DNA from: Spirochaetia bacterium
GTDB taxonomy: Bacteria; Spirochaetota; Spirochaetia; DAHUYW01
Direction of reading: 5' to 3'
Assembly (NCBI GenBank): GCA_030041455.1
Contig: JASHNV010000119.1
Coordinates: 19,787-83,786 of the forward strand
DNA: 64,000 nucleotides
A model generated the notes under the pieces. The model did no database searches. It was not told the origin of the DNA and was given only the letters and a program-made list of their open reading frames with translations. The position numbers and the translations under genes are program-made. The first letter of the stretch is position 1; every line of letters begins with the position of its first letter. Shown here in pieces: positions 5,231-38,221 of this stretch.

Positions 5231-6451
5231 TCAGTTGACCTTCCGGAGGAAGGCGTCCCGGTATCCGAGTGCGATGAACTGGTAGAGAAGAGCGCCGCTC
5301 TCGTCCCGCTTCAGCGGGCCGACGAGGACGCGGTAGACCTGCCGGCTGCTCGTCGTCGCGGCGAAGACCGAGACGGGATAGACCTGCGACAGGCTTGCCG
5401 CGAGGCTGAGCGCGTTCCCGGATTCGAAGAACGAGGCGAGCTGGACGTAGTAGGAGTCGGCCGCCATGCTCGCTTCGGGCTGCACGCCCGCGGGAAGGCT
5501 CGCTTGCGTCGGCTGCGTCGCGGCGGCTACCTCGCTTCCGGCGACCGGGACCGGAGCCGTTTGGGCGCTCGGTACCGCCTGCGCGGCCGATGCGGCCAGG
5601 ACGCCCGCAGGAGCGGCGGAGGCCGGAACCGGGAGGCTCCCGGAGAGCGCCAGGGGCTCGCTCCTCGGCGCGGCGGGCTCGGAGAGATCGAGGACGCGCG
5701 GCTCCCCCGCGATCTCCGTGGGCGGCGCCACCGCGCCGGCCTGGGAGAGCGCGGCAGCCTGAGGCGGCTGGATGCCCGCGAGATCCTCGCTCGGCGCCGA
5801 ACCCGCGCTCCGAAGCACGGGGGCCGGGAGAGCCGCGAGCTTGGGAGCTCCGTTGTTGACCGGAGGGGTCGGAAGAGGCTCGATGTCGGGCACCTCGGGC
5901 GTCCCCGCGGAAGAGGAGGGGGCGAGAGCCGCGGACTTCGCGCTCGCCGCGGGGGCGGCTCCCGCCGCCAAGCCCGCGGCGGGGCTTGCCGCCTGGGAGA
6001 CCGAGCTCGTTGCGGTCGTGGCGAGATAGCGGTTCAGGAACGCGAGGCTCGAGGGGTTCCCTACCCCGGCGGCGGGATTGATATCCGAGTCCGGGCTGTA
6101 GGGCAAGTCGCCGGGCGAGCCCGCCGCGTTCGGTCCGCTCGGAAGGGTGATCTCCACCCGCGCCGAGCCCCCGGACGCGACGCCGAGCGCGGCGCCCGCG
6201 TCGTTTGAAAGGAGCAGGAACAGACCGCTTTCGGAGACGCGGTCGATGATGAGCACGCTGGTCTGCTTCCCGTTGTCGAGGTTCTTGACGTTCACGAGGG
6301 TATTCTGCGGAAAGGAGTTCGAGGCGCCGTAGAGACCGCTTGAGGGAAACACTCCGTAGCTGCTCACGGCGGCGGTGCCCTCCCACGTCTGCTGCGCGAA
6401 AAGCGCGCTTGCGCACGTGAGAAATGCCAAGAACGCTCCAAACCGTCTCAT
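5231..6451 (-). CDS. rlpA: Septal ring lytic transglycosylase RlpA-like protein (DPBB domain plus C-terminal SPOR domain)
   Basis: Signal peptide (MRRFGAFLAFLTCASALFAQQ). RlpA-like double-psi beta-barrel segment (NTLVNVKNLDNGKQTSVLIIDRVS). Ala/Pro-rich linker. C-terminal SPOR-like segment (YYVQLASFFESGNALSLA...YRVLVGPL). Confidence 0.7.
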   Translation of the reverse strand: MRRFGAFLAFLTCASALFAQQTWEGTAAVSSYGVFPSSGLYGASNSFPQNTLVNVKNLDNGKQTSVLIIDRVSESGLFLLLSNDAGAALGVASGGSARVEITLPSGPNAAGSPGDLPYSPDSDINPAAGVGNPSSLAFLNRYLATTATSSVSQAASPAAGLAAGAAPAASAKSAALAPSSSAGTPEVPDIEPLPTPPVNNGAPKLAALPAPVLRSAGSAPSEDLAGIQPPQAAALSQAGAVAPPTEIAGEPRVLDLSEPAAPRSEPLALSGSLPVPASAAPAGVLAASAAQAVPSAQTAPVPVAGSEVAAATQPTQASLPAGVQPEASMAADSYYVQLASFFESGNALSLAASLSQVYPVSVFAATTSSRQVYRVLVGPLKRDESGALLYQFIALGYRDAFLRKVN

Positions 6452-6512
6452 TCCCTCGTTCTCCTGATATATCTTCGGGAGACTTTCGCGTGAGTTTGAG
6501 CCTTTTGCGCAA

Positions 6513-7040
6513 TCAAAGCAATGGCTGTTTCCAATCCCTCAGAACGTCGCGCGCGACCTCCTGTCCGAGCGCATAGCAGAGATCGTAGGGAGTTTTGCGG
6601 TCCGCGGCGTTCTTCGGCGGCACCTGGGGAACGAGGCTCCCTTCCGCGATCGTCCGACCCGAGCTCAGGTGGAGGAACTTGTAGTGGATCCCGGTCGGAA
6701 CCACCGACGGGCTCGGCGCGTCGGGAAAGGAGAGCTCGACCTCGAGGAGATAGCTCGCGCCTCCGGTTTTCGCCGTCTCGGCGGCCCACGTCTCCGACGG
6801 ATTGGCCGACGGGGCGCCGCTCTTCGCGCTCTGGGGCAGCCCGGTGTCGAAGATGATGTGGCCGGAATCGAAGAACAGCGCCATGACGCCGTCCTCGATC
6901 GCCACGTAGCGCTCCACGTTCTTGTTCTGCGAGTCGGCGCTCGCCCGCATTTGCGTGTACAGCATGACGGTGTCAGCGAAGGCGGCTCCTCCGGCAAGGA
7001 AGAACGCGCAGAGAAAGGACCCGATTATCCAACGTTTCAT
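6513..7040 (-). CDS. Hypothetical secreted protein
   Basis: 175 aa beginning MKRWIIGSFLCAFFLAGGAAFA (signal peptide). No recognisable domain. The upstream part of ORF 6513..7616 is a low-complexity GC artefact. Confidence 0.45.
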   Translation of the reverse strand: MKRWIIGSFLCAFFLAGGAAFADTVMLYTQMRASADSQNKNVERYVAIEDGVMALFFDSGHIIFDTGLPQSAKSGAPSANPSETWAAETAKTGGASYLLEVELSFPDAPSPSVVPTGIHYKFLHLSSGRTIAEGSLVPQVPPKNAADRKTPYDLCYALGQEVARDVLRDWKQPLL

Positions 7041-7271
7041 GTCGCCATCCTTAGCACGTACTTGATCATAATGTCGGCGCGAATCGGCCTCCAGTTGAAT
7101 GTCTTCGGCGTCCGTGCTACCTTCGTCGCGCGAGGATAAGGAGCGCCGCTTGAAGAGATCGGAGCGCTTCGGGGGCGTGAAGGAGCGGCTTTCCGCTTCC
7201 CGCGATTCGGCGGCGCGGCGGTTCGCCCCCGCCTCGAGCCGCTCGGGCGCCGATCCGGGCCGCGCGCGGAG

Positions 7272-7847
7272 ATGAGCTACTTCGTCATTCAAGTCATGAC
7301 GCGAAGCGAGGATCGATTCATCCGACTCGCGTCGAACGCCCTCCTCGTCGCCGCCTCTTCCGACGGCGAGCCCGGCGCCGAGGAGCTTCGACCCGGGCGC
7401 CTCTTCTGGCCGCGGCGGCGCCTGACGATCCGCAAGGGCGGCGTGAACCGGCTCTCCCTCGCTCCCATCTTCCCGGGCTACGTATTCTACGAGGCCGAGG
7501 GCCTCGACTCCCGCGCCTACTGGGAGATGAAGCGGCAGACCGGCTTCATCCGCTTCCTGAAGGACAACAGCCAGATCGAGCCGCTCGCCGGGACCGGGTT
7601 GGAGCTCCTCGTCCATTTCATCTCCTTCGGGGAGATCGTGGACAAGTCGCAGGCGTATTTCGACGAAAATCAGCGCATCCGCATTACGAGCGGCCCGCTA
7701 AAAGGGCTTGAAGGCCGCATCACGAAGGTCGATAAGAGAAGAGGACGGGCGAAGGTCAGGCTCGCCCTCTACGAGGAAGCGTTCCTCATCGACTTCGGGT
7801 TCGAACTCTTGGAAACGGCGGATGCGAATGAAAAAGGGAAGGCATGA
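7272..7847 (+). CDS. Specialised NusG-family transcription antiterminator paralog (UpxY/LoaP/RfaH-like): NGN domain plus KOW
   Basis: 191 aa. NGN-like N-terminus (YFVIQVMTRSEDRFIRL ... IFPGYVFYEAEGLDSRAYWEMKRQTGFIRFL). C-terminal KOW-like motif (ITSGPLKGLEGRITKVDKRRGRAKVRL). Not in the secE-nusG-rplK context. Lies directly upstream of polysaccharide-type genes. Confidence 0.7.
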   Translation: MSYFVIQVMTRSEDRFIRLASNALLVAASSDGEPGAEELRPGRLFWPRRRLTIRKGGVNRLSLAPIFPGYVFYEAEGLDSRAYWEMKRQTGFIRFLKDNSQIEPLAGTGLELLVHFISFGEIVDKSQAYFDENQRIRITSGPLKGLEGRITKVDKRRGRAKVRLALYEEAFLIDFGFELLETADANEKGKA

Positions 7848-9306
7848 CGGGATCTACATCGTGGGAGCGGGCTTCGCCGGCCGCGCGCTCGCGCGGGAGC
7901 TCAAGGACAAGGGCAACCTCGGAAGCGTGACGGCCTTCTTGGACGACGACCCCGAGAAGATCGGCGGCGCGGTGGACGGCATTCCGGTCTACGGTCCGAT
8001 CGCCGACGTCGAGAAGTTCATGGCGCGCGCTCCGGCGAGCGAGGCGCTCATCGCGCTCCCGTCGAGCGCGCGCGAGCGGCTGAAGAGCATCTACTGCACG
8101 CTCTCGCGCGCCGATTTCGAGCGGATCCGCATCCTTCCGGATTTGAGCCAGATCGTGGACGGCGAGGCGCATCTCATCCAAGCCCGCGAGATCGACGCCG
8201 ACGATCTCCTCGGGCGCAGCCCGGTCAACATCGGCCTGAAGAAAAGCCTCGACTATCTTCGCGGCAGACGGGTCGTCATCACCGGAGCGGGGGGAAGCAT
8301 CGGACGCGAGCTCGCCCGCCAGCTCCTCCACGGCGGCGCCGAGCGGCTCTACCTGCTCGACCACGAAGAGAACAGCATCTACGAAATCGACAAGGAGCTC
8401 CACCTCCTCCAAGAAGAGGGGGTCGGCGAGAAGGCGACGGTCGTCCCGGTTCTCGGGGACCTCCAGGACCGCGACTACGTTCGCTTCATCCTGCGGCGCC
8501 TGCGCGCGGACGTCGTCTTTCACGCCGCCGCCTACAAGCACGTTCCGATGCTCGAGTACAACCCGATCGAGGCCGTCAAGAACAACACGTTCGGCACCAA
8601 GAATCTCGTGGACGCCGCGATCGAGTGCGGAATCCCGCGCTTCGTGTTCATCTCCACCGACAAGGCGGTCCGCCCCAACTCGGTCTACGGCGCGTCGAAA
8701 ATGCTCGCCGAAGAGATCGTGCTCAAGCGGCGGCCCGGCCGCGGCGACTTCATGGTCGTCCGCTTCGGCAACGTGCTCGGCTCGCGCGGGAGCATCGTCC
8801 CGCTGTTCAAGCGCCAAATCCTGAAAGGGGGGCCGGTCACGGTGACCCATCCGGAGATGAGCCGGTTCTTCATGACGATTCCGGAAGCCTCCTCGCTCGT
8901 CCTGAAGGCCGGGGGCGTCGGCAAGGGCGGCGACCTCTACATCCTCGACATGGGCGAGCCTATCCTCATCCGCGACCTCGCCGAGTCCATGATCCGCTTT
9001 TACGGCTTCGAGCCCGAAACGGAGATCCCGATCTCCTACATCGGACTGCGTCCCGGCGAGAAGATGCACGAAACCCTCTGGGACACCGACGAGCGGCCCA
9101 TGCCGACGGGATACTCGCGGATCAACCGGCTTCCGCGGGGAGAGCGGTTCAACGGATCGTTCGACTGCCTCCTCTCGAAGCTCCACGCCGTCTGTTTCTT
9201 CGATCCCGACAAGCCGGCGCTCTATCGCAACCGGCGCGAGCTTCGCGCGGTCCTCCGCGAGTACATCCCCTCGATCGAAGCGCCGCGCGATGAACCCGAA
9301 TACTGA
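7828..9306 (+). CDS. Nucleotide-sugar 4,6-dehydratase, CapD/PglF/WbpM family (soluble form without N-terminal TM domain)
   Basis: Two Rossmann motifs (IVGAGFAGRALAREL and VITGAGGSIGRELARQL). Catalytic region conserved with PglF/CapD (FISTDKAVRPNSVYGASK). Start taken at MKKGRHDG; it overlaps the NusG-paralog stop by about 20 nt. Confidence 0.8.
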   Translation: MKKGRHDGIYIVGAGFAGRALARELKDKGNLGSVTAFLDDDPEKIGGAVDGIPVYGPIADVEKFMARAPASEALIALPSSARERLKSIYCTLSRADFERIRILPDLSQIVDGEAHLIQAREIDADDLLGRSPVNIGLKKSLDYLRGRRVVITGAGGSIGRELARQLLHGGAERLYLLDHEENSIYEIDKELHLLQEEGVGEKATVVPVLGDLQDRDYVRFILRRLRADVVFHAAAYKHVPMLEYNPIEAVKNNTFGTKNLVDAAIECGIPRFVFISTDKAVRPNSVYGASKMLAEEIVLKRRPGRGDFMVVRFGNVLGSRGSIVPLFKRQILKGGPVTVTHPEMSRFFMTIPEASSLVLKAGGVGKGGDLYILDMGEPILIRDLAESMIRFYGFEPETEIPISYIGLRPGEKMHETLWDTDERPMPTGYSRINRLPRGERFNGSFDCLLSKLHAVCFFDPDKPALYRNRRELRAVLREYIPSIEAPRDEPEY

Positions 9307-10522
9307 GCGCTTCATCCCCTTCGCGCTTCCGTCGATCGGCGAAGAGGAGGAGCGCGGCGTCGTCGAGGTCCTCCGATCGGGATGGCTTACGACCGGACCG
9401 GTCGCGAAGCGCTTCGAGGCGGAGGTCGCCGCGCTCGTCGGCTCGCGCCACGCCCTCGCGCTCAATTCGGCGACCGCCGGGCTTCACCTCGCTCTCGAGG
9501 CGGTGGGCGTCGGAGCGGGCGACCGCGTGCTCACGACCCCCTACACCTTCGCGGCATCGGCGGAAGTCATCCGCTATCTCGGGGCGAGCCCGCTGTTCCT
9601 CGATATCGACGGGGAGACGCTCAACATCGATCCGTCCGGGGTCGAGGAGGCGCTCAGCCGGGGGCCTAGCCCGCGGGAGGGCGGCTCCATCCGCGCCGTC
9701 CTTCCCGTGCACGTCGGCGGCCTTCCCTGCCGCATGGAGCGAATCCTCGCGGCCTGCGCGGCGGCGGGGGTTCCGCTCGTCGAGGACGCCGCCCACGCCT
9801 TTCCGGTCCGGACCGAGGGGCTCGGCGGAAGGCGCGCCTACTGCGGAACCCTCGGCGCGGCGGGCGTGTACTCCTTCTACGCGACGAAGACGATCACGAC
9901 CGGCGAAGGGGGCATGCTCGTGACCGACTCCGACGAGATCGCGCGCCGCGTGTCGCTCATGCGCCTGCACGGGATCGACCGCGAGGTCTGGAACCGCTAC
10001 GTATCGCGGGACGCCGAGTGGAGATACGAGATCGTCGAGGCGGGCTACAAATACAATCTCACCGACATCGCCGCCGCGATCGGAAGGGCGCAGCTCGCGA
10101 AAGCGGCGGATTTCCTCGAGCGCCGGAGGTCGATCGCGGCGAGGTACCTCGCCGCGTTCGCCGACGCGGACTACCTCAGGCTTCCCGCGGCCTCCGACGA
10201 TCACGCCTGGCACCTCTTTACTCTCAGGATCGTTGAAGATAGACTCACGATCGACCGCGACGAGATGGTGAGAAGCCTGATGGACCACGGTATCGGTGTG
10301 AGCGTCCATTTCATCCCGCTCCACATCATGCCCTACTACCGAAACGCCTACGGCTTCAAGCCGGAGGACTTCCCGAACGCCTTGCAAGCCTACCGGACGA
10401 TATTCAGCCTCCCCATCTATCCGTCCCTGACAGACGAGCAGGTCGAGAGGGTCGTCGCCGGCGTGAGGTCCGTCGCGGAGCGTCACCGCCGAGGAAGGCC
10501 GGATGCCGGGCGAAGAGGATAG
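9290..10522 (+). CDS. DegT/DnrJ/EryC1/StrS-family PLP-dependent sugar aminotransferase (PglE/PseC-like)
   Basis: 410 aa. Conserved fold throughout (LPSIGEEEERGVVEVLRSGWLTTGPVAKRFE ... YATKTITTGEGGMLVTD). Overlaps the upstream dehydratase gene. Confidence 0.85.
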   Translation: MNPNTERFIPFALPSIGEEEERGVVEVLRSGWLTTGPVAKRFEAEVAALVGSRHALALNSATAGLHLALEAVGVGAGDRVLTTPYTFAASAEVIRYLGASPLFLDIDGETLNIDPSGVEEALSRGPSPREGGSIRAVLPVHVGGLPCRMERILAACAAAGVPLVEDAAHAFPVRTEGLGGRRAYCGTLGAAGVYSFYATKTITTGEGGMLVTDSDEIARRVSLMRLHGIDREVWNRYVSRDAEWRYEIVEAGYKYNLTDIAAAIGRAQLAKAADFLERRRSIAARYLAAFADADYLRLPAASDDHAWHLFTLRIVEDRLTIDRDEMVRSLMDHGIGVSVHFIPLHIMPYYRNAYGFKPEDFPNALQAYRTIFSLPIYPSLTDEQVERVVAGVRSVAERHRRGRPDAGRRG

Positions 10523-12542
10523 GTTCGTCGGCGACTTCCTCGGCGAGAACGCGCTCTCCTGCAACGTCATTCGCTCCGCCGTGGCGCGCGGCAGGATCCT
10601 CTCGGTGAGCCATCCGAGGCTCCCGGAGGGCGTCTTCCTCTGTAGCGCGCGGGACGTTCCCGGCGACAATCGGCTCGCCGCCCTCGGATCCCCCTGCCCG
10701 CTTCTCGCCTCGCGGGAGGTGAGCTACCGGGGCGAGGCCGTGCTGCTCCTGTGCGGAAGCGACGAGCGGGCGCTCGAGGCGATCGCCGAGGAGATCGAGA
10801 TCCGGTACGCCGAGGAGGAGCCGCTCGTCTTCTCCGCGCCGAGCGACGACCAAATCGTCGATCGGCGCGAGGTGGTGGTCGGCGATCCCGACGCGGCGCT
10901 TGCGGAAGCCTTTCAGCTCGCCGAAGGGGAATACTCAACCGGCGCCCAGGAGCACTTCGCGAGCGACCCGCACGGAGCCCTCGTCGTTCCCCGCGAGGGG
11001 GGCTGCCTCGTCTACTGCCCGACCCAGTGGCCCTTCCACGTCCGGCGCACGGTCGCCTCCGCGCTCGGCGTCGCCGAGAAGCACGTCGAGGTCAGGGTGA
11101 CGCGCATGAGCGCGCATCGGGACTCCAAGATCTGGTTTCCTTCGCTCGTCGCGGCGCACGCGGCGTTGGCGGCGCGGAAATCCGGGCGAGCGGTGCGGCT
11201 CCTCGTCGAGCCGAGCGCGACGGCCTCCTTCACTCCGAAGCGGGCGCCGACCCGCGTCTCGATCCGCACGGGACTCGACCGCGAAGGCAACCCCGTCGCC
11301 CACGACATCGGGGTCTTCGTCGACGGAGGAGCCTTCCCCGTGCTCGGCGCCGAGCTCCTCGAGCGGACGATCGAAGGCGCGCTCGGAGGCTACGCGAGCC
11401 TTCCGGTGCGGCTGCGCGGCTTTCTCGTGAAGACGAGCTCCCCTCCGCTCGACGCCTTCGTCGGTCTCGGTCTTTCACAGGGCTTCTTTGCCGCGGAAAC
11501 CCACGCTTCGCGCCTCGCCGAGCTTTCCTCGACCGATCCGTTCACGTGGAAGGAGCGAAACCTCGTGAAGACGGGGGGGCGCCTCGCCTCGGGCGGCACG
11601 CCCTCGCACTACCCTCCGCCGGAGCTCCTCAGGCGCGTCGCCGAGGTCTCGGACTTCACGCGCAAGCACGCCTCCTACGAGATGCACAAGAAGCGCCGCA
11701 CCAAGGTCCCGGAGGAGGCGAAGCCGCTCAGGGGAATCGGCCTCTCGGTCGCCTACCAGGGAAGCGGCCTCGTGGGTCGCGGGGAGGAGCGATCGAGCTC
11801 CTCGGTCGTCGCGCGGCTCGACGCCGACGGAAGCCTCCTCATCCTCACCTCCGCCGTGTCGGTCGAGGGCATGGCCGAGCGCGCGTGGATCGACGCCGCA
11901 AGCAGGATCCTCGGCATCGAGAAAAAGCGGGTCGTGGTAGCGGAGTCGCGAACGGACTCCGTGCCGGACTCCGGGCCCTCGGCGCTCTCGAGGAACGTGA
12001 CGATCGTGAGGGAGCTCGTGGAGAGCTGCTGCAACGCCGTCGTGCGAAAGCGCTTTCGGGCGGCGCTTCCCATCGAGGTCAAGAGGACCTATCGGCCTCC
12101 GCGCGCGGGCCGCTGGGACGAGGAGCGGCGGACGGGCTTCCGGTTTCCGTCTCTTTCCTGGGGCGCGGCGGTCGTCGAGACCGAGGTCGACCCGATAACG
12201 CTCGAGACCTCGATCCGCGGCATCTGGACGGCGATCTCCTGCGGCGCGGTGCTCGACCCTCGCGCGGCTCGGCGTACGATCGAGAACGGAGTTTTCCACG
12301 CCCTGTGGTGGTGCACCTCCGACCACGCCTCGGCGCGACGGCCCCGGGTTCTCGCGATTCCGCCGATCTCGGTCGACTTTCTCCCGGGGGGGCCGAAGGG
12401 CTTCGCGGGCGGGATCGAGGAGCTTGCCGGAAGCGTCATTCCGTCCGCCTACGTTTCGGCGGTCGCGCAGGCGACCGGCCGTTACTTCGACGCCCTCCCG
12501 ATCACCCCCGAGCTCGTTCACCGCTACACGGAGGAGCCATGA
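10503..12542 (+). CDS. Xanthine dehydrogenase/aldehyde oxidase-family molybdopterin-binding large subunit (divergent)
   Basis: 679 aa. Colinear with CoxL/XdhA Mo-binding subunits (for example GLGLSQGFFAAETHASRLAELSSTDPFTWKERNL aligns with the FRGFGxPQ...DP.E.R..N region). Canonical GGGFGGK is replaced by GSGLVGRGE. Overlaps the upstream aminotransferase by 20 nt. Confidence 0.7.
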   Translation: MPGEEDRFVGDFLGENALSCNVIRSAVARGRILSVSHPRLPEGVFLCSARDVPGDNRLAALGSPCPLLASREVSYRGEAVLLLCGSDERALEAIAEEIEIRYAEEEPLVFSAPSDDQIVDRREVVVGDPDAALAEAFQLAEGEYSTGAQEHFASDPHGALVVPREGGCLVYCPTQWPFHVRRTVASALGVAEKHVEVRVTRMSAHRDSKIWFPSLVAAHAALAARKSGRAVRLLVEPSATASFTPKRAPTRVSIRTGLDREGNPVAHDIGVFVDGGAFPVLGAELLERTIEGALGGYASLPVRLRGFLVKTSSPPLDAFVGLGLSQGFFAAETHASRLAELSSTDPFTWKERNLVKTGGRLASGGTPSHYPPPELLRRVAEVSDFTRKHASYEMHKKRRTKVPEEAKPLRGIGLSVAYQGSGLVGRGEERSSSSVVARLDADGSLLILTSAVSVEGMAERAWIDAASRILGIEKKRVVVAESRTDSVPDSGPSALSRNVTIVRELVESCCNAVVRKRFRAALPIEVKRTYRPPRAGRWDEERRTGFRFPSLSWGAAVVETEVDPITLETSIRGIWTAISCGAVLDPRAARRTIENGVFHALWWCTSDHASARRPRVLAIPPISVDFLPGGPKGFAGGIEELAGSVIPSAYVSAVAQATGRYFDALPITPELVHRYTEEP

Positions 12543-13021
12543 CGGTCGCTTTCATGCTGAACGGCCGAAGCGTCACGGTCAACGTCGAACCCGAACGGCG
12601 GCTCGTCGACATCCTCCGCGAGGATTTCGAGCTCACGCGCACGAAAGCCGGCTGCTACGCGGGCGACTGCGGCGCGTGCACCGTGCTGCTCAACGGCGCG
12701 CTCGCGGTGTCGTGCATGCTTCCCGCCTTCGCGCTGCGGGGCGCGAGCGTTCTCACGATCGACGGATTCTCGAGGACCCGGGACTACGGCGACATCCTTC
12801 GCTCGTTCAACGAGGCCGGCTACGCGCCGTGCGGCTACTGCGCGCAGGGGCGGATCCTCTCGGTGCACGTGCTCCTCGAGAAGCACGCCGAGCCGAGCGA
12901 GGAGCAGATCCTCTCGGGCCTCGCGGGGATCGGCTGTCAGTGCGCCGACTACTCGACGCTCCTGCGCGCGGTGAGCCTCGCGGCTTCCGCCCGCAAGAGC
13001 CGCCGGAGGGCGAGGAGGTAG
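12539..13021 (+). CDS. (2Fe-2S)-binding small subunit of the Mo-hydroxylase (CoxS/XdhC-like)
   Basis: 160 aa. Both Cys clusters present (AGCYAGDCGACTV and GYAPCGYCAQG ... GIGCQCADY). ATGA overlap with the large-subunit stop. Ends in an unusual basic tail (SARKSRRRARR) followed by TAG. Confidence 0.8.
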   Translation: MTVAFMLNGRSVTVNVEPERRLVDILREDFELTRTKAGCYAGDCGACTVLLNGALAVSCMLPAFALRGASVLTIDGFSRTRDYGDILRSFNEAGYAPCGYCAQGRILSVHVLLEKHAEPSEEQILSGLAGIGCQCADYSTLLRAVSLAASARKSRRRARR

Positions 13022-13879
13022 CGCACGGCGGAACGGCAGACGGTCATCCACGCGCCCGAGACCCTGAGCGAGCTTCTTTCGCTCTACCGGAGGCTCCCTT
13101 CCGCGCTCCTGTTCAACGGGGGCACGCACATCCTCCGCCTTCAGCCCGTCAAGCACGTCCGCCTTCCCGCGAACGTCATCAACATATCGAGGATCGAGGA
13201 GCTCCACCACATCAGCCGGACCGAGCGGCACATCGACGTGGGCTCCGCGGTGCCGATCAGCCGGATCCTCGACATCGGCGCGAACGTCCTCCCGCGCGTG
13301 ATGCATCTTGCCCTTTCCGAGCTCGGCACCCCCGCGATACGGAATCGCGCCACGCTCGGAGGCAACATCTGCATCCGAGAGCGGCGAATGAGCGCCTTTC
13401 CGGTCTACCTGCTCCTCGACATCCAGCTCGAGCTCAAGCGCGCCGGCACGACGAGGTGGATTCCGCTCAGCCGCTTCGCCCCGGGGGGCGGGAAGATCGA
13501 CCTCCAGCGAAGCGAGGTGCTCACGAGGATACGCATCCCGTTCGCGGCGTGGGATTTCGAGGTCTACCGGAGAATCAACCGGGAGACGAGCGATTCCGCC
13601 GACTTCCTGTCCTTCTGCGGGCTCGCGCGCACCGAAAAGAACGTCATCCAGGACATCCGCATCGCCTACGGGACCGCCGGATCCGAGGTGATCCGAAGCC
13701 GCGAGATCGAGAACGAGCTCGTCGGCCGGAAGCTCCCGATCGGGAAACGGGAGCTCGGCCCGATCATGGAGATCCTCGACGCGGCTCTTGCGCTCGCCGC
13801 CGACGCGCTCACGAGCTTCAAGCGGGAGCGGATTCGGAGCCTCCTCGGCTGGTTTCTCGCGGAGCTCCCGGACCGGTAG
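13022..13879 (+). CDS. FAD-binding subunit of the Mo-hydroxylase (CoxM/XdhB-like); start codon unresolved
   Basis: The conserved FAD-subunit N-terminus (VIHAPETLSELLSLYRRLPSALLFNGGTHILRLQP...) is encoded from 13022, immediately after and in frame with the TAG of the 2Fe-2S gene. No ATG/GTG/TTG occurs before the GTG at 13238. The ORF track calls 13238..13879. The C-terminal CO-dehydrogenase flavoprotein domain is present. Confidence 0.55.
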   Translation, partial: RTAERQTVIHAPETLSELLSLYRRLPSALLFNGGTHILRLQPVKHVRLPANVINISRIEELHHISRTERHIDVGSAVPISRILDIGANVLPRVMHLALSELGTPAIRNRATLGGNICIRERRMSAFPVYLLLDIQLELKRAGTTRWIPLSRFAPGGGKIDLQRSEVLTRIRIPFAAWDFEVYRRINRETSDSADFLSFCGLARTEKNVIQDIRIAYGTAGSEVIRSREIENELVGRKLPIGKRELGPIMEILDAALALAADALTSFKRERIRSLLGWFLAELPDR

Positions 13880-13895
13880 CGCCGCGCTTCGCTTC

Positions 13896-13924
13896 TTTAC
13901 AGAGCCCCGGTTGGAAGCTATAGT
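13896..13924 (+). promoter_or_regulatory. Candidate sigma70-type promoter (TTTACA-N17-TATAGT) upstream of dnaE
   Basis: Read directly from the sequence in the 215-nt intergenic region before dnaE. Spacer is exactly 17 nt. Hand-counted coordinates. Confidence 0.4.
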
Positions 13925-14094
13925 CGTTCGCGGCGGCGCGCTGGCGCCCGGCATCGGCGCGGCGTCCGAGGCGCTTCGCTCAGGGGCCTCAAGGCGGAGC
14001 GCGCGAGCGGGACATCGGAGCGGGCGGGCCGTCCGCGACGCCGGGGGTCGGAGCGTGCTTCCCGCGGGGAGCCCGGCGCGATTCTGGGGGAGCC

Positions 14095-17517
<3,423 letters not shown>

Positions 17518-25137: not shown

Positions 25138-26931
25138 CTATTCGAGAACCGCGCGGATGCGCCGGACGCCGGCGGAGGAGGACTGCTCCTTCGTGATCTT
25201 GAAGCGGCCGAGCACTCCGGTATGCTCGACGTGCGGCCCGCCGCAGACCTCCTCCGAGAAGTCCCCGATGGAGTAGACCTTCACCTTCTCGCCGTATTTC
25301 TCGTCGAAGAACGCGTAGGCGCCCCGCGCCCTCGCCTCGTCGAGGGTCATGACCTCCATCACCACGGGGAGGTCGGCCTTGATCTCGGCGTTCACGATGT
25401 CCTCGACCCGGCCGATCTGCCCTTCGGTCATCTTCTCCGGATGGGTGAAATCGAAACGCAGCCGCTCGGCGGTGATGTTGCTGCCCATCTGCCGGACGTG
25501 GTCGCCGAGCGTCATGTGAAGCGCCTTGTGGAGGAGATGGGTCGCCGTGTGGAGCTTCGTGGTCATCTCCGAGTGATCGGCGAGCCCGCCCTTGAAGGTC
25601 CGCTCCGAGCCGACCTTGGAAAGCTCCTGGTGGCGCGAGAACGCCTCGTCGAAGCCCGCGGAATCGACCGAAAGGCCGTGCTCGGCCGCGAGCTCCTGGG
25701 TGATCTCGAGGGGAAAGCCGTAGGTGTCGTAGAGCCTGAAGGCGACGCGCCCGGGAATGGTCTTCGCGGGGTCGTCGAGCAGCTCGGGAAGCATTTTCTC
25801 GAACTCGCCCTCCCCCACTCTGAGCGTCTTCAGGAAGCGCTCCTCCTCGAGGGCAAGCTCTTCCATGATGGTCGCGCGGCCCGCGGCAAGCTCCGGATAG
25901 GCTCCCTCGTAGAGATCGACGACGACGCTGGCCGGCTTCTCGAGGAACTTGCCCTCGATGCCGAGCTTGCGGCCGTGGCGAAGCGCGCGTCGGATGAGAC
26001 GGCGCAGGATGTATCCGGCGCCGAGATTGGAGGGCGTCACGGCCCGCTGGTCGCCGAGGATGAAGCTCGCCGTGCGAACGTGGTCGGAGATGATGCGGAT
26101 GGAGCGGTCGGTCGGCTCGTCTCTTCCGAACCGAGCGCCCGAAACCCTCTCGATCTCGGCGATGACGGGCGAGAAGACCTCCGTCTCGTAGACCGACTTC
26201 TTGCGCTGGAGCATCGCCACGGTCCGCTCGATGCCCATGCCGGTATCGACGTTCGGCCGGGGAAGCCGCTCGTAGCTGCCGTCGGCGCGCTTGTTGTACT
26301 CCATGAAGACGTCGTTCCAGATCTCGAAGTACTTCCCGCACGAGCAACCCGGCCGGCAATCGGGTCCGCAGGCCGGCTCTCCGGTGTCGATGAACATCTC
26401 GGAATCCGGCCCGCAGGGCCCGGTCTCCCCCGCGGGTCCCCACCAGTTGTCCTTTCGAGGAAGGAAATAGATGCGCTCTGCGGGGACCCCGAGCGACCGC
26501 CAAACCTCGGCGCTCTCCGCGTCGCGGGCGACCTCTCGGTCTCCCGCGAAGCAGGTGACCGAGAGGGCCTCAGGATCGAGCCCGAGCCATCGCGGCGAGG
26601 TGAGAAACTCGTAGCTCATCTCGATCGCTTCTTTCTTGAAATAATCGCCGAGGGACCAGTTGCCGAGCATCTCGAAGAAGGTGAGGTGGCCCGAGTCGCC
26701 GACCGCCTCGATGTCGCCGGTTCGAATGCATTTCTGATAGTCGGTGAGCCGCGTGCCGGCCGGGTGGCGCTCGCCGAGGAGGTAGGGCACGAGGGGATGC
26801 ATCCCGGCGGTCGTGAAGAGCACCGTCGGATCGTTGTCCGGGATGAGCGACTTGCCGGAGATCTGGGCGTGACCCTTGGAGACGAAGAACTCGATGTATT
26901 TCGTGCGGAGGTCGTTCGCCGTGCGTATCAT
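25138..26931 (-). CDS. alaS: Alanine--tRNA ligase, short form lacking the C-Ala domain
   Basis: About 597 aa from MIRTANDLRTKYIEFF. Class II catalytic core, tRNA-recognition and editing domain (HTATHLL...CGGPHV). No C-terminal C-Ala domain, as in spirochaete AlaRS. The ORF-track start at 27009 is upstream of the likely ATG. Confidence 0.9.
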   Translation of the reverse strand: MIRTANDLRTKYIEFFVSKGHAQISGKSLIPDNDPTVLFTTAGMHPLVPYLLGERHPAGTRLTDYQKCIRTGDIEAVGDSGHLTFFEMLGNWSLGDYFKKEAIEMSYEFLTSPRWLGLDPEALSVTCFAGDREVARDAESAEVWRSLGVPAERIYFLPRKDNWWGPAGETGPCGPDSEMFIDTGEPACGPDCRPGCSCGKYFEIWNDVFMEYNKRADGSYERLPRPNVDTGMGIERTVAMLQRKKSVYETEVFSPVIAEIERVSGARFGRDEPTDRSIRIISDHVRTASFILGDQRAVTPSNLGAGYILRRLIRRALRHGRKLGIEGKFLEKPASVVVDLYEGAYPELAAGRATIMEELALEEERFLKTLRVGEGEFEKMLPELLDDPAKTIPGRVAFRLYDTYGFPLEITQELAAEHGLSVDSAGFDEAFSRHQELSKVGSERTFKGGLADHSEMTTKLHTATHLLHKALHMTLGDHVRQMGSNITAERLRFDFTHPEKMTEGQIGRVEDIVNAEIKADLPVVMEVMTLDEARARGAYAFFDEKYGEKVKVYSIGDFSEEVCGGPHVEHTGVLGRFKITKEQSSSAGVRRIRAVLE

Positions 26932-26989
26932 AGAGAAAATATAGTAATTGGAGCGGCAGGCCATGTCAAGTTTCGGATACCTGTCCGCG

Positions 26990-27018
26990 TTGACAATGCC
27001 AAGGTGCATCTATATACT
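26990..27018 (+). promoter_or_regulatory. Candidate sigma70-type promoter (TTGACA-N17-TATACT) for the alpha-oxoamine synthase gene
   Basis: Consensus -35 hexamer, 17-nt spacer and near-consensus -10 in the AT-richer alaS/SPT divergent intergenic region, about 35 nt upstream of the ATG at 27058. Hand-counted coordinates. Confidence 0.45.
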
Positions 27019-28781: not shown

Positions 28782-30020
28782 TCAATCGACAAAATTGTCG
28801 TCCCAGTGAATCGAGATCTTGCGCTGCCCGTCGAGCTCGAGGAGATAATCGACGAACTCTTTGGTCGCCTTGTCCACGTCGCTCTTTCGCATCTTGCCGA
28901 GGTGCTCGAGCTCCTCGGCGACGATCGTCCGACGGCGCGCGGAGAGGTTCGCGAGCAGCTTTGCGCCGATCGCTTCGTCCTTGCCCTTGAGCAGGACCGC
29001 GATCTCCCGGTCGTCGTACTCCCTGAGGATCGACTGCAAGTCCTGGTCGTCCACTTTGAGCAGGATCTCGACGGTGTACACCCGATCCTTCACGTTGCGC
29101 GAGAGCTCCGGATCGAACTCGGCGAGATCCCCGAGGATCTTCTCCTCCGATGCGATGTCCATGTGCTTGAGGATCTCCGCGAGCGCGGCCTTTCCGTCGA
29201 GGTCGCGCGAGACGACGGTGCCCTGGGTCCTGATGCGCTCCTTCAGGACCTCCTCGATGCGGTTGATGACCTCGGGATCCACCTTCTCCATCTTCGCGAT
29301 GCGCTTGACAACCTGGCTCTGAATGTCGGGCGGGAGGTGCTCCACGATCTTGGCGGCCTTCTTCGGATCGAGGCTCGCGAGGACGATGCTCACCGCGCGC
29401 GCCGACTCGCTCTTCAGGAGGAGAAGAATCTGCTCGTAGTCGATGTCGGCGAGGAATCCGAAGGGGGATTGGCCCGAGCGCGGGAGCGCGCGGCGGATGA
29501 GCGACGCCGCGCGCTCCTCGCCGAACGCCGCCCTCAGCATCGCCTTCGCGGTCTCGGGGCCGGCCTTCACCGAGTGCGCCTGCCGCTTCGCCGCGCCGAA
29601 CTCCTTCAGGAGCTGCTTCGCCTCGCCGTCGTCGATCCGGCGGACCCGCGCGATCTCGGCGGTGATGCCCTCGATCTCCTCGCGGGTGAAGTGCTTGAGA
29701 ATCTTCGCGGCTTCTTCCTGGCCGAGAAGGAGCAGGAAGCGCGCGACCTTCCGGTAGCCGCGCTCGCCCGCCCGGGCTTTGAGGAGACCCTCGGTCTTCG
29801 CCGTCCCCGCGGGGGCGGGATCGCTTCGGACGCCCTTCGCGGCGCTCGGGGCTCGAGAGCGGTCCGCGGGCGCTGTACGCCGCGCGCCGTGCGCCGCATG
29901 CTTTCCTGAAAGCTCGACGGTGGCCTGCAGCGCGTCCTTCGGTCTCGGCTTCGCGCCCGATCCCTTCCCCTTCCCGCTCGCCGCGCGGTAGGCCGCGATG
30001 CCCCTCTCCGCCTCGTTCAT
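28782..30020 (-). CDS. fliG: Flagellar motor switch protein FliG paralog with low-complexity N-terminal extension (FliG1-like)
   Basis: 412 aa. About 90-aa Ala/Gly/Lys/Arg-rich N-terminal extension followed by complete FliG N, M and C domains (LILLLKSESARAVSIVLASL ... MRKSDVDKATKEFVDYLLEL). Confidence 0.8.
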   Translation of the reverse strand: MNEAERGIAAYRAASGKGKGSGAKPRPKDALQATVELSGKHAAHGARRTAPADRSRAPSAAKGVRSDPAPAGTAKTEGLLKARAGERGYRKVARFLLLLGQEEAAKILKHFTREEIEGITAEIARVRRIDDGEAKQLLKEFGAAKRQAHSVKAGPETAKAMLRAAFGEERAASLIRRALPRSGQSPFGFLADIDYEQILLLLKSESARAVSIVLASLDPKKAAKIVEHLPPDIQSQVVKRIAKMEKVDPEVINRIEEVLKERIRTQGTVVSRDLDGKAALAEILKHMDIASEEKILGDLAEFDPELSRNVKDRVYTVEILLKVDDQDLQSILREYDDREIAVLLKGKDEAIGAKLLANLSARRRTIVAEELEHLGKMRKSDVDKATKEFVDYLLELDGQRKISIHWDDNFVD

Positions 30021-30088
30021 GCCCCATCATACCAGCGCGCAATTCGGCGGTCAATCGACGCGGACCTCCCGGGATCGTCGAGCTTCTT

Positions 30089-34537: not shown

Positions 34538-36007
34538 TCACTTCGATAGCAGGCTCATCGCGCGCTCGATGCGCGATCGGGTCTTCTCGATCCCGAGGAG
34601 CCGGATCGAGCCGAAAAGAGGCGGCGAGACCCGGCTCCCGGTCACGGCCACCCGAACCGGCATGAGGAGATCGCCGAGCTTGACTCCCATCTCGTCGGCC
34701 TTCCCCCGAAAGAGCCGCTCCGCCTCCTCTTCGCTCCGCGAAGCGAGCCCTTCGAGGAGACCTGCCGCCTCGCCGAGCGCCGCGCGGGCGCCCTTCGCGT
34801 CGAGCTTCTTCGGCACGAGCTCCTCGGCGGGATATTCGGCCGGCTCGGCGAAGAGGAAGCGGAGGAGCCCGCTTGCGTCGTTGAGGACGCGCATGCGCTC
34901 CTTTATGAGCGGCATCGCCTCGCGCACGAGCGCGAGCTCGCTGGCCTGAGGATTCTCGGCGAGCACGCCGTCCCGCTTGAGGACGGGAACGACCAATTCC
35001 GCGAGCTCCTCGTCGCTCTTCATCCGGATGTAGTGGCCGTTGAACCAGTCGAGCTTCTTGTAATCGAAGACCGCGGGCGCCTTGTTGAGCCGGTCGAGGG
35101 TGAAGAGCCTCTCGAGATCGGACGTGCTGAAGAACTCGCGGGTATCGTCGTACGACCAGCCGAGGAGCGAGACGTAGTTGATGACCGCCTCCGGGAGATA
35201 GCCCGCGTCGCGAAACTCGCGCACGCTCGTCGAGCCGTGCCGCTTCGAGAGCTTCTGGCCGTCGGACCCCATGACCATGGGAAGGTGGCAGTAGATCGGC
35301 GGGGTCCAGCCGAAGGATTCGTAGAGAAGCACGTGCAGCGGCGCCGAGGGCACCCACTCCTGCGCCCTCAGGATGTGGGAGATCTCCATGAGGTGATCGT
35401 CGACGACGTTTGCGAGATGATAGGTGGGAAAGCCGTCCGACTTCAGGAGCACCGGATCGGGATTGATATCCTCGTTCTTCCGCTCGATGTCGCCGAGGAG
35501 CACGTCGTGCATGGTCGTGCCGCCCTCAAGCGGCACCTTGAACCTGATGACCGGCTTGATGCCCTCCGCCCGACTCTCGGCGATTTCGGCGGCGGAGAGA
35601 CTTCGGCAGTGGCGGTCGTAGCCCGGCGCCATCTTGTTCGCCGTCTGGATGCGCCGGATACGATCGAGGCGCGCCTCGCTGCAGAAGCATTCGTAGGCCT
35701 TGCCCTCCGCGAGCAACCGCATGGCGTGCTCCCGGTAGATCGCGGAGCGCGCCGATTGCACGTAGGGCGCAAAGGGGCCGCCGCAATCGGGCCCCTCGTC
35801 CCACCGAACGCCGAGCCATGCGAAGGTGTCGTAGAGGTCCTGGAGCGCTTCGTCGGAATAGCGGCCCTGATCGGTGTCCTCGATGCGCAGAACGAAGGCG
35901 CCCCGATTCGCGCGCGCGAAAAAATAGTTGAACAACGCGGACCGCACGCCGCCGATGTGCTGAAGGCCCGTCGGCGAGGGCGCGTACCGCACGCGGACAC
36001 TCATCAT
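34538..36007 (-). CDS. gltX: Glutamate--tRNA ligase
   Basis: 489 aa. HIGH (PSPTGLQHIGG) and KMSKS (KLSKRHG) motifs. Confidence 0.95.
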   Translation of the reverse strand: MMSVRVRYAPSPTGLQHIGGVRSALFNYFFARANRGAFVLRIEDTDQGRYSDEALQDLYDTFAWLGVRWDEGPDCGGPFAPYVQSARSAIYREHAMRLLAEGKAYECFCSEARLDRIRRIQTANKMAPGYDRHCRSLSAAEIAESRAEGIKPVIRFKVPLEGGTTMHDVLLGDIERKNEDINPDPVLLKSDGFPTYHLANVVDDHLMEISHILRAQEWVPSAPLHVLLYESFGWTPPIYCHLPMVMGSDGQKLSKRHGSTSVREFRDAGYLPEAVINYVSLLGWSYDDTREFFSTSDLERLFTLDRLNKAPAVFDYKKLDWFNGHYIRMKSDEELAELVVPVLKRDGVLAENPQASELALVREAMPLIKERMRVLNDASGLLRFLFAEPAEYPAEELVPKKLDAKGARAALGEAAGLLEGLASRSEEEAERLFRGKADEMGVKLGDLLMPVRVAVTGSRVSPPLFGSIRLLGIEKTRSRIERAMSLLSK

Positions 36008-36110
36008 GCTCCCTTGCGATATGGTTTCGCGGCCGGAGAGGAAATCACGTCTATGCGCGTTCTTCAGTATACGAGTTTGTCCGGCACCTGGGCAAGGGGC
36101 CCGATTCGGC

Positions 36111-37331
36111 TCAGGCCCCCTGCCGATACTGCCCGAGGAAGTCCCGCAGGCTCTTCATCGCGCTGCCGAGCTCGTCCTTGCGGGGAAGGAACACGACGCG
36201 AAAATGGTCGGGACGCGGCCAGTTGAAGCCCGAGCCCTGGACGAGGAGAACCCTCTTCGCGTGGAGGAAGTCGAGGACAAACTGCTGGTCGTTCGTGATG
36301 CCGAACTTCTCGACGTCGATCCTCGGAAACATGTACAGCGCGCCTTTCGGCTTGACGCAGCTCAGGCCCGGGATGTCGGCGAGGAGATTGTAGCAGAAGT
36401 CGCGTTGGTCCCGCAGGCGCCCGCCGGGGCGGACGAGGTCGTCGATGCTCTGGTAGCCGTGGAGCGCCGTTTGAATCGCGAACTGCGAAGGAACGTTGCT
36501 GCACAGGCGCATGTTGGAGAGCATCTCGATGCCCTCAAGATAGTCTTTCACGTGCGAACGACGCCCGCTCAAGACCATCCACCCCGCGCGGAATCCGGCG
36601 GCTCGGTAGGCCTTGGAGAGCCCGTTGAAGGTGACGGTGAAGACGTCGCTCGACACGGTGGCCGCCGATACGTGGCGCGCGTCCTCGTAGAGGATCTTCT
36701 CGTAGATCTCGTCGGAGAAAAGGATGAGCTCGTGCCGCGCGGCGAGCCTCGCGATCGCCTCGACGATCTCGCGGGGGTACACCGACCCCGTCGGGTTGTT
36801 CGGGTTGATGACGACGATGCCCTTCGTCCGCGCGGTGATCTTCTTCTCGATGTCCTCGAGGTCGGGATACCAGTCCGACGACTCGTCGCAGAGGTAGTGA
36901 ACCGCCCGGCCGCCGGCGAGGTTCACCGCCGCCGTCCACAGCGGATAGTCGGGCGCCGGAACGAGCATCTCGTCCCCGTCGTCGAGAAGGCCCTGCATCG
37001 ACATGACGATGAGCTCGCTCACGCCGTTCCCGATGTAGACGTCGTCGATGCCGACGTCCAGCAGGCCCTTCTCCTGGTAGTACTGCATGATCGCCTTGCG
37101 CGCGGCGAAAAGACCTTTCGAGTCGACGTAGCCCTGAGCGTTCCGGAGGTTGACGATCACGTCGTGGAGAATCTCCTCCGGCGCGTCGAATCCGAAAGGC
37201 GCGGGGTTTCCGAGGTTGAGCTTCAGGACCCGCAGCCCCTCCTCCTCGAGCTTCTTCGCCGCCTCGAGGACGGGCCCCCGGATGTCGTAGAGAACGTCGT
37301 CGAGCTTGTGAGATTTCTTGAACTCGCGCAT
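36111..37331 (-). CDS. PLP-dependent aminotransferase, AlaA/alanine aminotransferase-like (class I)
   Basis: About 406 aa from MREFKKSHKLDDVLYDIRGPV. Conserved LNLGNP and SKAY/RAAGFRAGW lysine region. The ORF-track extension to 38330 overlaps the next gene and is an artefact. Confidence 0.85.
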   Translation of the reverse strand: MREFKKSHKLDDVLYDIRGPVLEAAKKLEEEGLRVLKLNLGNPAPFGFDAPEEILHDVIVNLRNAQGYVDSKGLFAARKAIMQYYQEKGLLDVGIDDVYIGNGVSELIVMSMQGLLDDGDEMLVPAPDYPLWTAAVNLAGGRAVHYLCDESSDWYPDLEDIEKKITARTKGIVVINPNNPTGSVYPREIVEAIARLAARHELILFSDEIYEKILYEDARHVSAATVSSDVFTVTFNGLSKAYRAAGFRAGWMVLSGRRSHVKDYLEGIEMLSNMRLCSNVPSQFAIQTALHGYQSIDDLVRPGGRLRDQRDFCYNLLADIPGLSCVKPKGALYMFPRIDVEKFGITNDQQFVLDFLHAKRVLLVQGSGFNWPRPDHFRVVFLPRKDELGSAMKSLRDFLGQYRQGA

Positions 37332-37387
37332 GCGCTGCACCTCGTCTGTCGATCGCCACGCAAAATCGAGCGGAGAGCCGCTCCGCC

Positions 37388-38221
37388 CTAGTGGATGACC
37401 TTCGGGTCTCCTACGGCTCCGAAAGCGAAGAGCCATTCGGTCGCCTCCTGAACGAGCTTCGACAGGAGGACGACTTCGACTTCGTCCTTCGCCCGGTCGA
37501 GCTCCTTCTGCCACAGGATCGGACTGAAGCGCTTCTTCAGCGAGGCTTTTCCTTCCTCGAGCAGCCTCTCGACCCGCGGATCGTCGTTCGAAAAGGCGTC
37601 GAGCAGATAGTAGGAGAGCAGGAGCAGGACCGGCTCCCGCGAGCGTCGCGCGACGCCTACGAGCGTCTCGCGCGCCTCCTCGCGGCGCTTGAGGAGCATG
37701 AGCGCGAAGGCATGGTTCCACGAGATCCAGTTCTCCTTCGCGACGCGCTTGTTCCCCACAAACGCGCCGAAATAGCGCTCCATCTCCGCCGGCTCGTTCT
37801 TCAGGAGATAGGGAATACCCAGGGAAAGGGCAAAGGCGCCGACCAACGCGGGCTTTTTCTCGCGAATGAGCCGCTCGAGCCTCCCGATACCCTCCGTATT
37901 GGAATTGACCAGATAGCCGTTTATCAGTATTCTGACGTACTGGCGTCGGAGCCTGTTCTTTTCGAAGACTTGCGTCTCCAGGTAGCGCACGATGCCCGCC
38001 CAATCCTCCCGCTCGAGCAGGATGAACAGGCGCCAGTTGAGCGCGAAATAGAGGTTCAGGGCTCCGATGATCGCAAAAAAGATGACCGGAAGGTACCAGT
38101 CGCTGGCCCAGAACAGCTTCGCGTAGTCCCAGCCGATGACGAACAGGGGCATGAGGTAGATGACGAGGAACGCCACCACCAGCACAGCGTTGAATAAGAG
38201 AAAAATCACCTTGAATTTCAC
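37388..38221 (-). CDS. Hypothetical integral membrane protein
   Basis: 277 aa. Three N-terminal TM helices and a soluble helical C-terminal part. Codon usage is slightly AT-richer than neighbours. Confidence 0.5.
   Translation of the reverse strand: MKFKVIFLLFNAVLVVAFLVIYLMPLFVIGWDYAKLFWASDWYLPVIFFAIIGALNLYFALNWRLFILLEREDWAGIVRYLETQVFEKNRLRRQYVRILINGYLVNSNTEGIGRLERLIREKKPALVGAFALSLGIPYLLKNEPAEMERYFGAFVGNKRVAKENWISWNHAFALMLLKRREEARETLVGVARRSREPVLLLLSYYLLDAFSNDDPRVERLLEEGKASLKKRFSPILWQKELDRAKDEVEVVLLSKLVQEATEWLFAFGAVGDPKVIH

Follow-up and report, generated by a model that had tools for sequence, protein, structure and literature searches.

A LoaP-headed six-gene unit of Spirochaetota that may link nucleotide-sugar enzymes to a remodelled xanthine dehydrogenase-fold complex

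Why should three subunit genes of a xanthine dehydrogenase (XDH)-like enzyme lie directly behind two genes of nucleotide-sugar metabolism and a gene for a specialised NusG paralog? The question is raised by a locus of a Spirochaetia bacterium (GenBank assembly GCA_030041455.1, contig JASHNV010000119.1), which was analysed as a window of 64,000 nucleotides (positions 19,787 to 83,786 of the forward strand; G+C content about 66%). Six plus-strand reading frames occupy positions 7272-13879 of the window. A preliminary description of this DNA had reported them as overlapping or abutting genes, and the frames were found as reported, with successive overlaps of 20, 17, 20 and 4 nucleotides (nt) and a sixth frame that is open from 13022. 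The six genes are a real operon-like unit which is widely conserved in Spirochaetota. In the reading preferred here, they form one operon headed by a LoaP-type gene, and the XDH-like trio, instead of being an XDH, has been repurposed for a redox reaction in the pathway of the two sugar enzymes; we consider this reading to be evenly poised between right and wrong. The features of the locus are the following:

7044..7271, plus strand: presumed promoter and leader, between a divergent secreted-protein gene and the LoaP-like gene
7272..7847, plus strand: LoaP-type specialised NusG paralog, 191 residues (Pfam NusG and KOW; NCBIfam LoaP)
7828..9306, plus strand: soluble PglF/CapD-type UDP-N-acetylglucosamine (UDP-GlcNAc) 4,6-dehydratase, 492 residues (Polysacc_synt_2; in-frame ATG codons at 7822 and 7828)
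9290..10522, plus strand: DegT-family sugar aminotransferase dependent on pyridoxal phosphate (PLP), 410 residues (DegT_DnrJ_EryC1, PF01041)
10503..12542, plus strand: large subunit of the XDH family, cofactor and substrate site remodelled, 679 residues (MoCoBD_1, MoCoBD_2, Ald_Xan_dh_C)
12539..13021, plus strand: small subunit with two [2Fe-2S] clusters, 160 residues (Fer2 and Fer2_2)
13022..13879, plus strand: medium subunit binding flavin adenine dinucleotide (FAD), about 280 residues (FAD_binding_5 and CO_deh_flav_C)
13896..13924, plus strand: promoter-like site, probably of dnaE, marking the 3' boundary of the operon (TTTACA-17-TATAGT, 10/12 matches)

The conservation of this gene order was analysed first from the large subunit. 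A search of species-representative genomes with an alignment pattern of this protein gave 247 relatives, of which the best 80 were kept; 60 loci had enough flanking DNA, and synteny was scored by tblastn of the window proteins against the related loci. All taxon-named members of the best 80 of the 247 belong to Spirochaetota (Treponema, Breznakiellaceae, Rectinemataceae, Spirochaetaceae and others), and the carriers include the cultured Breznakiella homolactica RmG30 and an assembly labelled Gracilinema caldarium. The order LoaP, PglF, DegT, large, small and medium subunit was complete in 53 of the 60 loci, with the trio only in four others and DegT plus the trio in two. Metagenome contigs, searched with the NusG paralog as anchor, displayed the full six-gene order in 20 of the 24 loci with enough flanking DNA. 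The recurrence of the same order in both sets demonstrates that the adjacency is not due to chance, and the synteny check which had been set beforehand for this point returned a link conserved across Spirochaetota.

The packing of the genes is tight in the relatives as well. The gap between DegT and the large-subunit gene has a median of +2.5 nt and is at most 20 nt in 54 of 64 loci, and the PglF-DegT and FeS-FAD (iron-sulfur and FAD subunit) junctions both have a median overlap of 17 nt. Within the window, a scan of positions 6900-14300 predicted neither a terminator-like nor an internal promoter-like site on the plus strand inside the block, and the site at 13896..13924 was the sole plus-strand promoter-like match. 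The flanks differ between loci (dnaE, queA/ruvABC, dehydroquinate synthase, mfd, secA), so that the six-gene block itself appears as the conserved unit. Clustering of all flanking open reading frames of the 80 genome loci gave no recurrent non-housekeeping family, and no purine genes were present in the recurrent families. No description of the six-gene arrangement was found in the literature searched, in line with the earlier claim that it is undescribed; Goodson et al. 2017 and Kurniyati et al. 2017 lay outside that search.

Several loci depart from the common order. In the metagenome lineage of locus L130, LoaP, PglF and DegT are directly followed by dnaE, and in L104 LoaP and PglF are followed by dnaE. 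L137 shows LoaP and PglF and then the trio, with DegT missing. L162 carries a GNVR (Wzz-like) gene ahead of LoaP and TetR/efflux genes after DegT, while in L129 LoaP lies ahead of a STAS gene and a mraZ-murE-mraY-ftsW cluster. In L082 and L083 the trio is located directly ahead of dnaE, without LoaP, PglF or DegT. Two termite-gut treponemes (L037, 5265-9772; L039, 4927-9386) have genes for an SbcC/RAD50-type ATPase (JetC-like) and for JetD directly upstream of the large subunit; these genes suggest a putative Wadjet-type defence system at the place where the sugar genes are missing.

The large subunit bears on the earlier assignment of the trio to the molybdenum hydroxylases. MoCoBD_1 and MoCoBD_2 scored over their cutoffs and Ald_Xan_dh_C reached 28.2 against a cutoff of 31.3, while all XDH equivalog models remained far under theirs. 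The AlphaFold model (pLDDT, the predicted local distance difference test, 88) superimposes on the XDH and aldehyde oxidoreductase structures 1JRO, 1FIQ and 1SIJ with template-modelling (TM) scores of 0.86-0.89 at 21-23% identity. The three canonical motifs of the molybdenum cofactor (Moco) site are lost in the entire clade. In place of GGGFGGKE, the window protein has MSAHRDSKIW and the clade a consensus G-(V/I)-H-L-D-G-K-(L/I)-W, GGGFG being found in 0/48 clade members versus 48/52 other XDH-family matches. AFRGFG reads AFVGLG, with Val at the equivalent of bovine R912, a position which is Arg in none of 75 orthologs and Ala, Gly or Ser across the clade. E(M/F)GQG has disappeared clade-wide as well, the corresponding segment of the window protein being VSVEGMAER.

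At the substrate site, the equivalent of the xanthine-binding E802 is Ile in the window protein and Leu or Ile in 75/75 orthologs. The equivalents of Q767, R880 and E1261 are retained in the window protein, R880 being Gln in 22/75 orthologs. The catalytic E1261 corresponds to E640 of the window protein in the motif GIEELA; this position is Glu in 65/75 orthologs, Asp in 8/75 and another residue in 2/75, and the catalytic Glu is lost in the relative P0047. The replacing residues are near-invariant: Asp207 in 74/75, Trp211 in 75/75 and Glu284 in 74/75 orthologs (canonical XDHs have Val at the position of 284), usually together with His205. Residues conserved to this degree in the replaced cofactor loops point to selection for a remodelled site and not to decay. 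What stands of the earlier assignment is thus the fold, the FAD domain, the eight cluster cysteines and the catalytic Glu; the label of molybdenum hydroxylase has become uncertain because the GGGFGGK, AFRGFG and EMGQG motifs are lost clade-wide. The most fitting description of the trio is that of a flavo-iron-sulfur protein of XDH fold with a remodelled site, which is unlikely to oxidise xanthine and may or may not still bind molybdenum.

The electron-transfer subunits present a more conventional picture. The small subunit contains all eight cluster cysteines (39, 44, 47, 59, 98, 101, 133, 135), each of which is kept in 75-78 of 78 orthologs. The medium subunit matches FAD_binding_5 (E 4e-33) over residues 9-174 of its frame. 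As the FAD site and both [2Fe-2S] clusters are kept, electrons can probably still pass between FAD and the large subunit. The start of the FAD gene is unusual. It shares the reading frame of the FeS gene and is split from it only by the TAG codon at 13019-13021; the first ATG, GTG or TTG codon occurs at 13238 (none for 216 nt), whereas the FAD domain starts at about 13046. In relatives, the FAD gene begins 14-17 nt ahead of the FeS stop codon and in another frame. By eye, an ACG codon at 13025 lines up with the start predicted for the ortholog in L001. A rare start codon, read-through of the stop codon giving a FeS-FAD fusion, or an assembly error are all possible. A fusion of this kind exists in XdhA of R. 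capsulatus.

One small subunit differs from all of this. In a low-GC lineage (GCA_054040095.1), the small subunit encoded at 10180-10665 of L082, and likewise that of L083, lacks cysteine at each of the eight [2Fe-2S] positions, and the usual clusters can thus not be carried by this complex.

Sequence comparison of both sugar-nucleotide enzymes agreed with the identities proposed earlier. The dehydratase matches Polysacc_synt_2 with 366 bits (E 1e-109), and its closest solved relative is PglF/WlaL of C. jejuni (255 bits), followed by CapD (179), FnlA (154) and PseB (148). The Thr-Asp-Lys motif is kept, with ISTDKAV aligned to PglF. No gene of the block is better conserved (57-80% identity across loci). 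The N-terminal membrane domain of full-length PglF and WbpM was not found, as judged from sequence and Pfam and not from a dedicated transmembrane predictor; a Rossmann-like MKKGRHDGIYIVGAGFAG segment stands at the very start, and the match of the N-terminal CoA_binding_3-like domain begins at the N-terminus. The aminotransferase matches PF01041 with 392 bits (E 5e-117) and has ArnB as its closest solved relative (282 bits). Its scores are below all equivalog cutoffs (PseC 354/423.5, ArnB 329/631 and LegC 234/420 bits). The lysine forming the Schiff base with PLP is present, SFYATK standing for SFHAIK and aligning with K188 of ArnB. By homology, the two enzymes should make a UDP-4-amino-4,6-dideoxy-N-acetylhexosamine (UDP-4-amino-4,6-dideoxy-HexNAc) from UDP-GlcNAc.

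A different chemistry, in which the FeS and FAD subunits reduce a DegT-type dehydrase using pyridoxamine phosphate, as in E1/E3-type 3-deoxygenation, was considered and ruled out, since the PLP lysine is present rather than His. Dehydrases of that type have His at this position and, in addition, a [2Fe-2S] motif of their own. RfbH is the seventh-best model for the aminotransferase, with 149 bits versus a cutoff of 423.

The fate of the amino sugar is less evident. As noted previously, no acetyltransferase or glycosyltransferase follows the block, the next genes being dnaE, yggT, recG, rsmD and hisZGB. Among the larger open reading frames scanned within the window, no genes were found for glycosyltransferases, acetyltransferases, purine catabolism, Moco biosynthesis or XdhC. 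The flagellins of T. denticola are decorated with a nonulosonic acid of the pseudaminic type whose N7 acyl group is unusual (PMC13439194), and a PglF/DegT-type pair could conceivably feed such a pathway, which is given here as a lead only. Genes for NeuB-type synthases were observed 6-8 kb downstream of the six-gene block in L085 (15987-17135) and L075 (19837-20952).

The NusG paralog had been considered a specialised one, and this view was strengthened. The protein scores over the cutoffs of PF02357 (26.8 bits) and PF00467 (KOW; 25.5 bits), and its best NCBIfam model is LoaP (NF033641) with 123.4 bits versus a cutoff of 125, far ahead of NusG (41), UpxY (34) and RfaH (19). Nine of ten orthologs pass the LoaP model with 128-156 bits. 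Compared with most orthologs, the N-terminal domain of the window protein contains some 13 additional residues (about 29-41), and this insertion coincides with the shortfall of 1.6 bits. LoaP is reported from Bacillota, Actinomycetota and Spirochaetota; in Bacillus velezensis, the protein attaches to a UNCG hairpin located in the leader of the operon and opposes the action of NusA (PMC12691694). The window protein is probably a specialised LoaP-type paralog, and its family suggests an antitermination function.

A signal for such a function was looked for in the leader. Region 7044-7271 displayed no strong fold (z +1.7), no sigma-70-like site in the promoter scan and no Rfam match in a scan of 6400-14300. 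UNCG hairpins were looked for in the 350 nt upstream of the LoaP gene in each of 60 orthologous leaders and were not enriched, a stem of at least 5 bp being found in 3/60 versus 2.5 expected from shuffles. As no UNCG hairpin was found, the recruitment signal, if the LoaP-like protein acts on its own operon, differs or lies elsewhere. The close relatives L003 and L087 have a promoter-like pair (TTGAA-N17-TGGTAnGGT) about 10 nt ahead of the ATG codon and almost no 5' leader; compared to them, the leader of the window contains an additional GC-rich stretch of about 90 nt.

A short motif, CTATCGG / TTGACTATCGG, recurs in 29/60 related leaders (for example L014, L047, L055 and L071), where it adjoins the divergent gene at its start. 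A promoter-like pair, CTTCCATTGC ... GTGCTAGTAT, follows the CTATCGG motif in several loci of Rectinemataceae type and lies just ahead of the LoaP gene. The exact motif is absent from the leader of the window.

Taken as one pathway, the operon could work as follows. The LoaP-type product would keep RNA polymerase elongating through the operon, as suggested by its family. The PglF-type dehydratase would convert UDP-GlcNAc to the 4-keto-6-deoxy intermediate, to which the aminotransferase would then add an amino group, giving UDP-4-amino-4,6-dideoxy-HexNAc. The XDH-fold heterotrimer would act on this amino-sugar nucleotide or a derivative thereof, and the end use may be a glycoconjugate of the spirochaete envelope or flagella. 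The gene content, the operon-like packing, the conserved linkage and the lost and gained motifs are observed; the identity of the sugar made and, even more so, of the compound on which the trio acts are put forward here as proposals, and it is gene linkage that points to an amino sugar as the latter.

Several observations weigh against this reading. That the six genes are co-transcribed is itself inferred, and we know of no XDH-family chemistry on UDP-amino sugars. Neither within the block nor close to it was an acetyltransferase, glycosyltransferase or flippase found, a nonulosonic acid synthase of the NeuB type is located nearby in two loci only, and the leaders lack the enrichment in UNCG hairpins. 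The sole experimental data on a possibly related trio, that of Borrelia, indicate peroxide resistance and not glycans (PMC9993122). The wider neighbourhood (ligA, SPOR-domain and small secreted protein genes, the block, then dnaE, yggT and recG) is partly conserved too, and the linkage could therefore in part reflect inherited gene order and not a shared function. Lastly, the modules are separable: the trio occurs alone in L037/L039, L043, L076, L080 and L082/L083, the sugar genes occur without the trio in L130, L104 and L162, and the trio without DegT in L137. The coupling of sugar and XDH-like genes that had been proposed from the window is thus non-accidental by synteny, and it is dissolved in a few lineages that have the trio only, the sugar genes only, or no DegT.

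The last two points are also what a self-standing trio would explain. The trio would then have a role of its own, for instance to protect against oxidative stress or to oxidise purines or aldehydes in the way proposed for xdhACB of Borrelia, and would share the transcript of the sugar genes through ancestral order only. The Borrelia burgdorferi genes bb_0554-0556 (xdhACB, Phelan et al. 2023) indeed have the same subunit order and similar sizes, are co-transcribed, and are needed for resistance to H2O2 and for survival in ticks and mice (PMC9993122). The same work never detected the formation of uric acid (PMC9993122), and the orthologs of the window trio have lost the cofactor motifs and have Leu or Ile for E802 throughout, and partly Gln for R880. 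Purine-catabolism genes are not found nearby, unlike in the canonical sister XDHs, and the tight DegT-large subunit junction, overlapping or abutting in 54 of 64 loci, speaks against this view as well. Overall, a self-standing trio is a possible explanation, but a somewhat unlikely one.

A further proposal takes the remodelled site at face value. The heterotrimer would no longer be a molybdenum enzyme; the cleft with Asp207, Trp211 and Glu284, usually with His205, would bind the UDP-4-amino sugar or another metal or cofactor, and FAD and the [2Fe-2S] clusters would drive a new redox tailoring of the amino-sugar nucleotide. Borrelia XdhACB and T. pallidum TP0079-0081 would then be its reduced and misnamed descendants. 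This proposal is speculative and we judge it unlikely.

The loss of three Moco-binding motifs across the clade, the small subunit of L082/L083 without cluster cysteines and the missing catalytic Glu of P0047 could alternatively indicate an XDH-fold pseudoenzyme, which would be a scaffold, sensor or regulator in a non-redox role. Yet the FAD domain and the eight cluster cysteines persist in the main clade, the catalytic position is acidic in 73/75 orthologs, and the near-invariance of the replaced loop indicates selection on an active site, which makes a role without catalysis improbable. Adjacency by chance in this genome only, for which nothing but the lack of an obvious shared chemistry could be advanced, was rejected, as the same order recurs in many spirochaete families.

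Upstream of the block, on the opposite strand, lie genes for a small secreted protein of about 176 residues without Pfam match (6513-7043, minus strand) and a SPOR-domain protein (5231-6451, minus strand), both divergent from the operon, as well as ligA; homologs of the first two hold the same position in many related loci. Elsewhere in the window, the alanyl-tRNA synthetase frame (25138-27009, minus strand) stops behind the second additional domain and, with only 623 residues, falls short of the length that this enzyme usually has in bacteria. A FliG homolog (28782-30026, minus strand) has an N-terminal extension of about 90 residues ahead of the FliG_N domain. Sizeable frames without Pfam match at E 1e-5 occur at 36006-37391 (plus strand), 37388-38221, 39556-40101 and 60738-61595 (all minus strand); the G+C content at third codon positions is coding-like in the latter three and not in the first.

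If the linkage reflects function, a phylum-wide operon would join nucleotide-sugar chemistry to a repurposed XDH-fold redox enzyme, which would represent a new activity in a well-studied family. The preferred reading would, if true, also offer an alternative hypothesis for a locus on which Borrelia depends in ticks and mice, and it might bear on five genes that the syphilis agent has kept in its minimal genome. The range of LoaP-type antiterminators would then extend to a short, housekeeping-like operon without the known leader hairpin.

Comparison with described systems sets off what is new in this locus. To judge from the NCBIfam model, LoaP of B. velezensis and relatives probably belongs to the same family of NusG paralogs, and its gene likewise adjoins the presumed target operon. 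In the described cases LoaP acts on long polyketide operons whose 5' leader contains terminators and a UNCG hairpin (PMC12691694), whereas the spirochaete gene is the first cistron of an operon of 6.6 kb without enrichment of this hairpin. As in the PglF/PglE pair of the Campylobacter bacillosamine pathway and the PseB/PseC pair of pseudaminic acid synthesis, a UDP-GlcNAc 4,6-dehydratase is combined with a PLP-dependent 4-aminotransferase. Unlike in these pathways, no PglD or PseH acetyltransferase, PseG, synthase or transferase follows; the window dehydratase lacks the membrane domain of PglF, and the aminotransferase is nearer to ArnB and PseC than to PglE.

Among described systems, xdhACB of Borrelia comes nearest; the trio of the window is perhaps related to it and resembles it in the order and size of its subunits. 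Large, FeS-like and FAD subunits have 622, 155 and 289 residues in Borrelia versus 679, 160 and about 280 in the window, and the large and small Borrelia subunits are divergent enough to be annotated as hypothetical. Peptides translated from the published primers for reverse transcription PCR of the Borrelia genes gave matches to the window trio that were too short and ambiguous. In Borrelia, no LoaP, PglF or DegT is reported beside bb_0554-0556, and the phenotype consists of peroxide sensitivity and loss of infectivity. The name xdhACB is based on modelling, allopurinol sensitivity and rescue by uric acid, and XDH activity was never demonstrated biochemically (PMC9993122).

Treponema pallidum may offer a further parallel. 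In the Nichols annotation, TP0077 is cap5D, TP0078 is spsC and TP0080 is 'quinoline 2-oxidoreductase', which, to judge by these gene names, would correspond to the five-gene order. No named homolog from T. pallidum, T. denticola or Borrelia was present among the matches listed in three protein searches, one of them at E 1e-20 and one covering the best 120 of 2414 matches; these best 120, from the third search, were all from environmental or termite-gut spirochaetes. Looking up the window protein by exact sequence gave no record. In T. pallidum, TPASS_0079 and TPASS_0081 are predicted as XDH molybdenum-binding and FAD-binding proteins, and a NusG-like hypothetical protein, TPASS_1032, lies elsewhere in the genome (PMC5951579).

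The canonical XDHs of the PucD/XdhA type (P0050, P0051 and P0053) share with the window clade the subunits, their large-small-medium order, the fold and the catalytic Glu at 28-34% identity. They keep GGGFGGKE, AFRGFG and E(M/F)GQG, none of which is found in the window clade. P0051 and P0053 are located in purine-catabolism clusters with guanine deaminase, uricase, 5-hydroxyisourate hydrolase, 2-oxo-4-hydroxy-4-carboxy-5-ureidoimidazoline decarboxylase and allantoicase, and the window clade is not. The subunit order had been called atypical in the preliminary description, a claim that has to be withdrawn: since the nearest canonical XDHs have the same order, it is not peculiar to this operon but inherited, and the changes concern the gene context and the active site.

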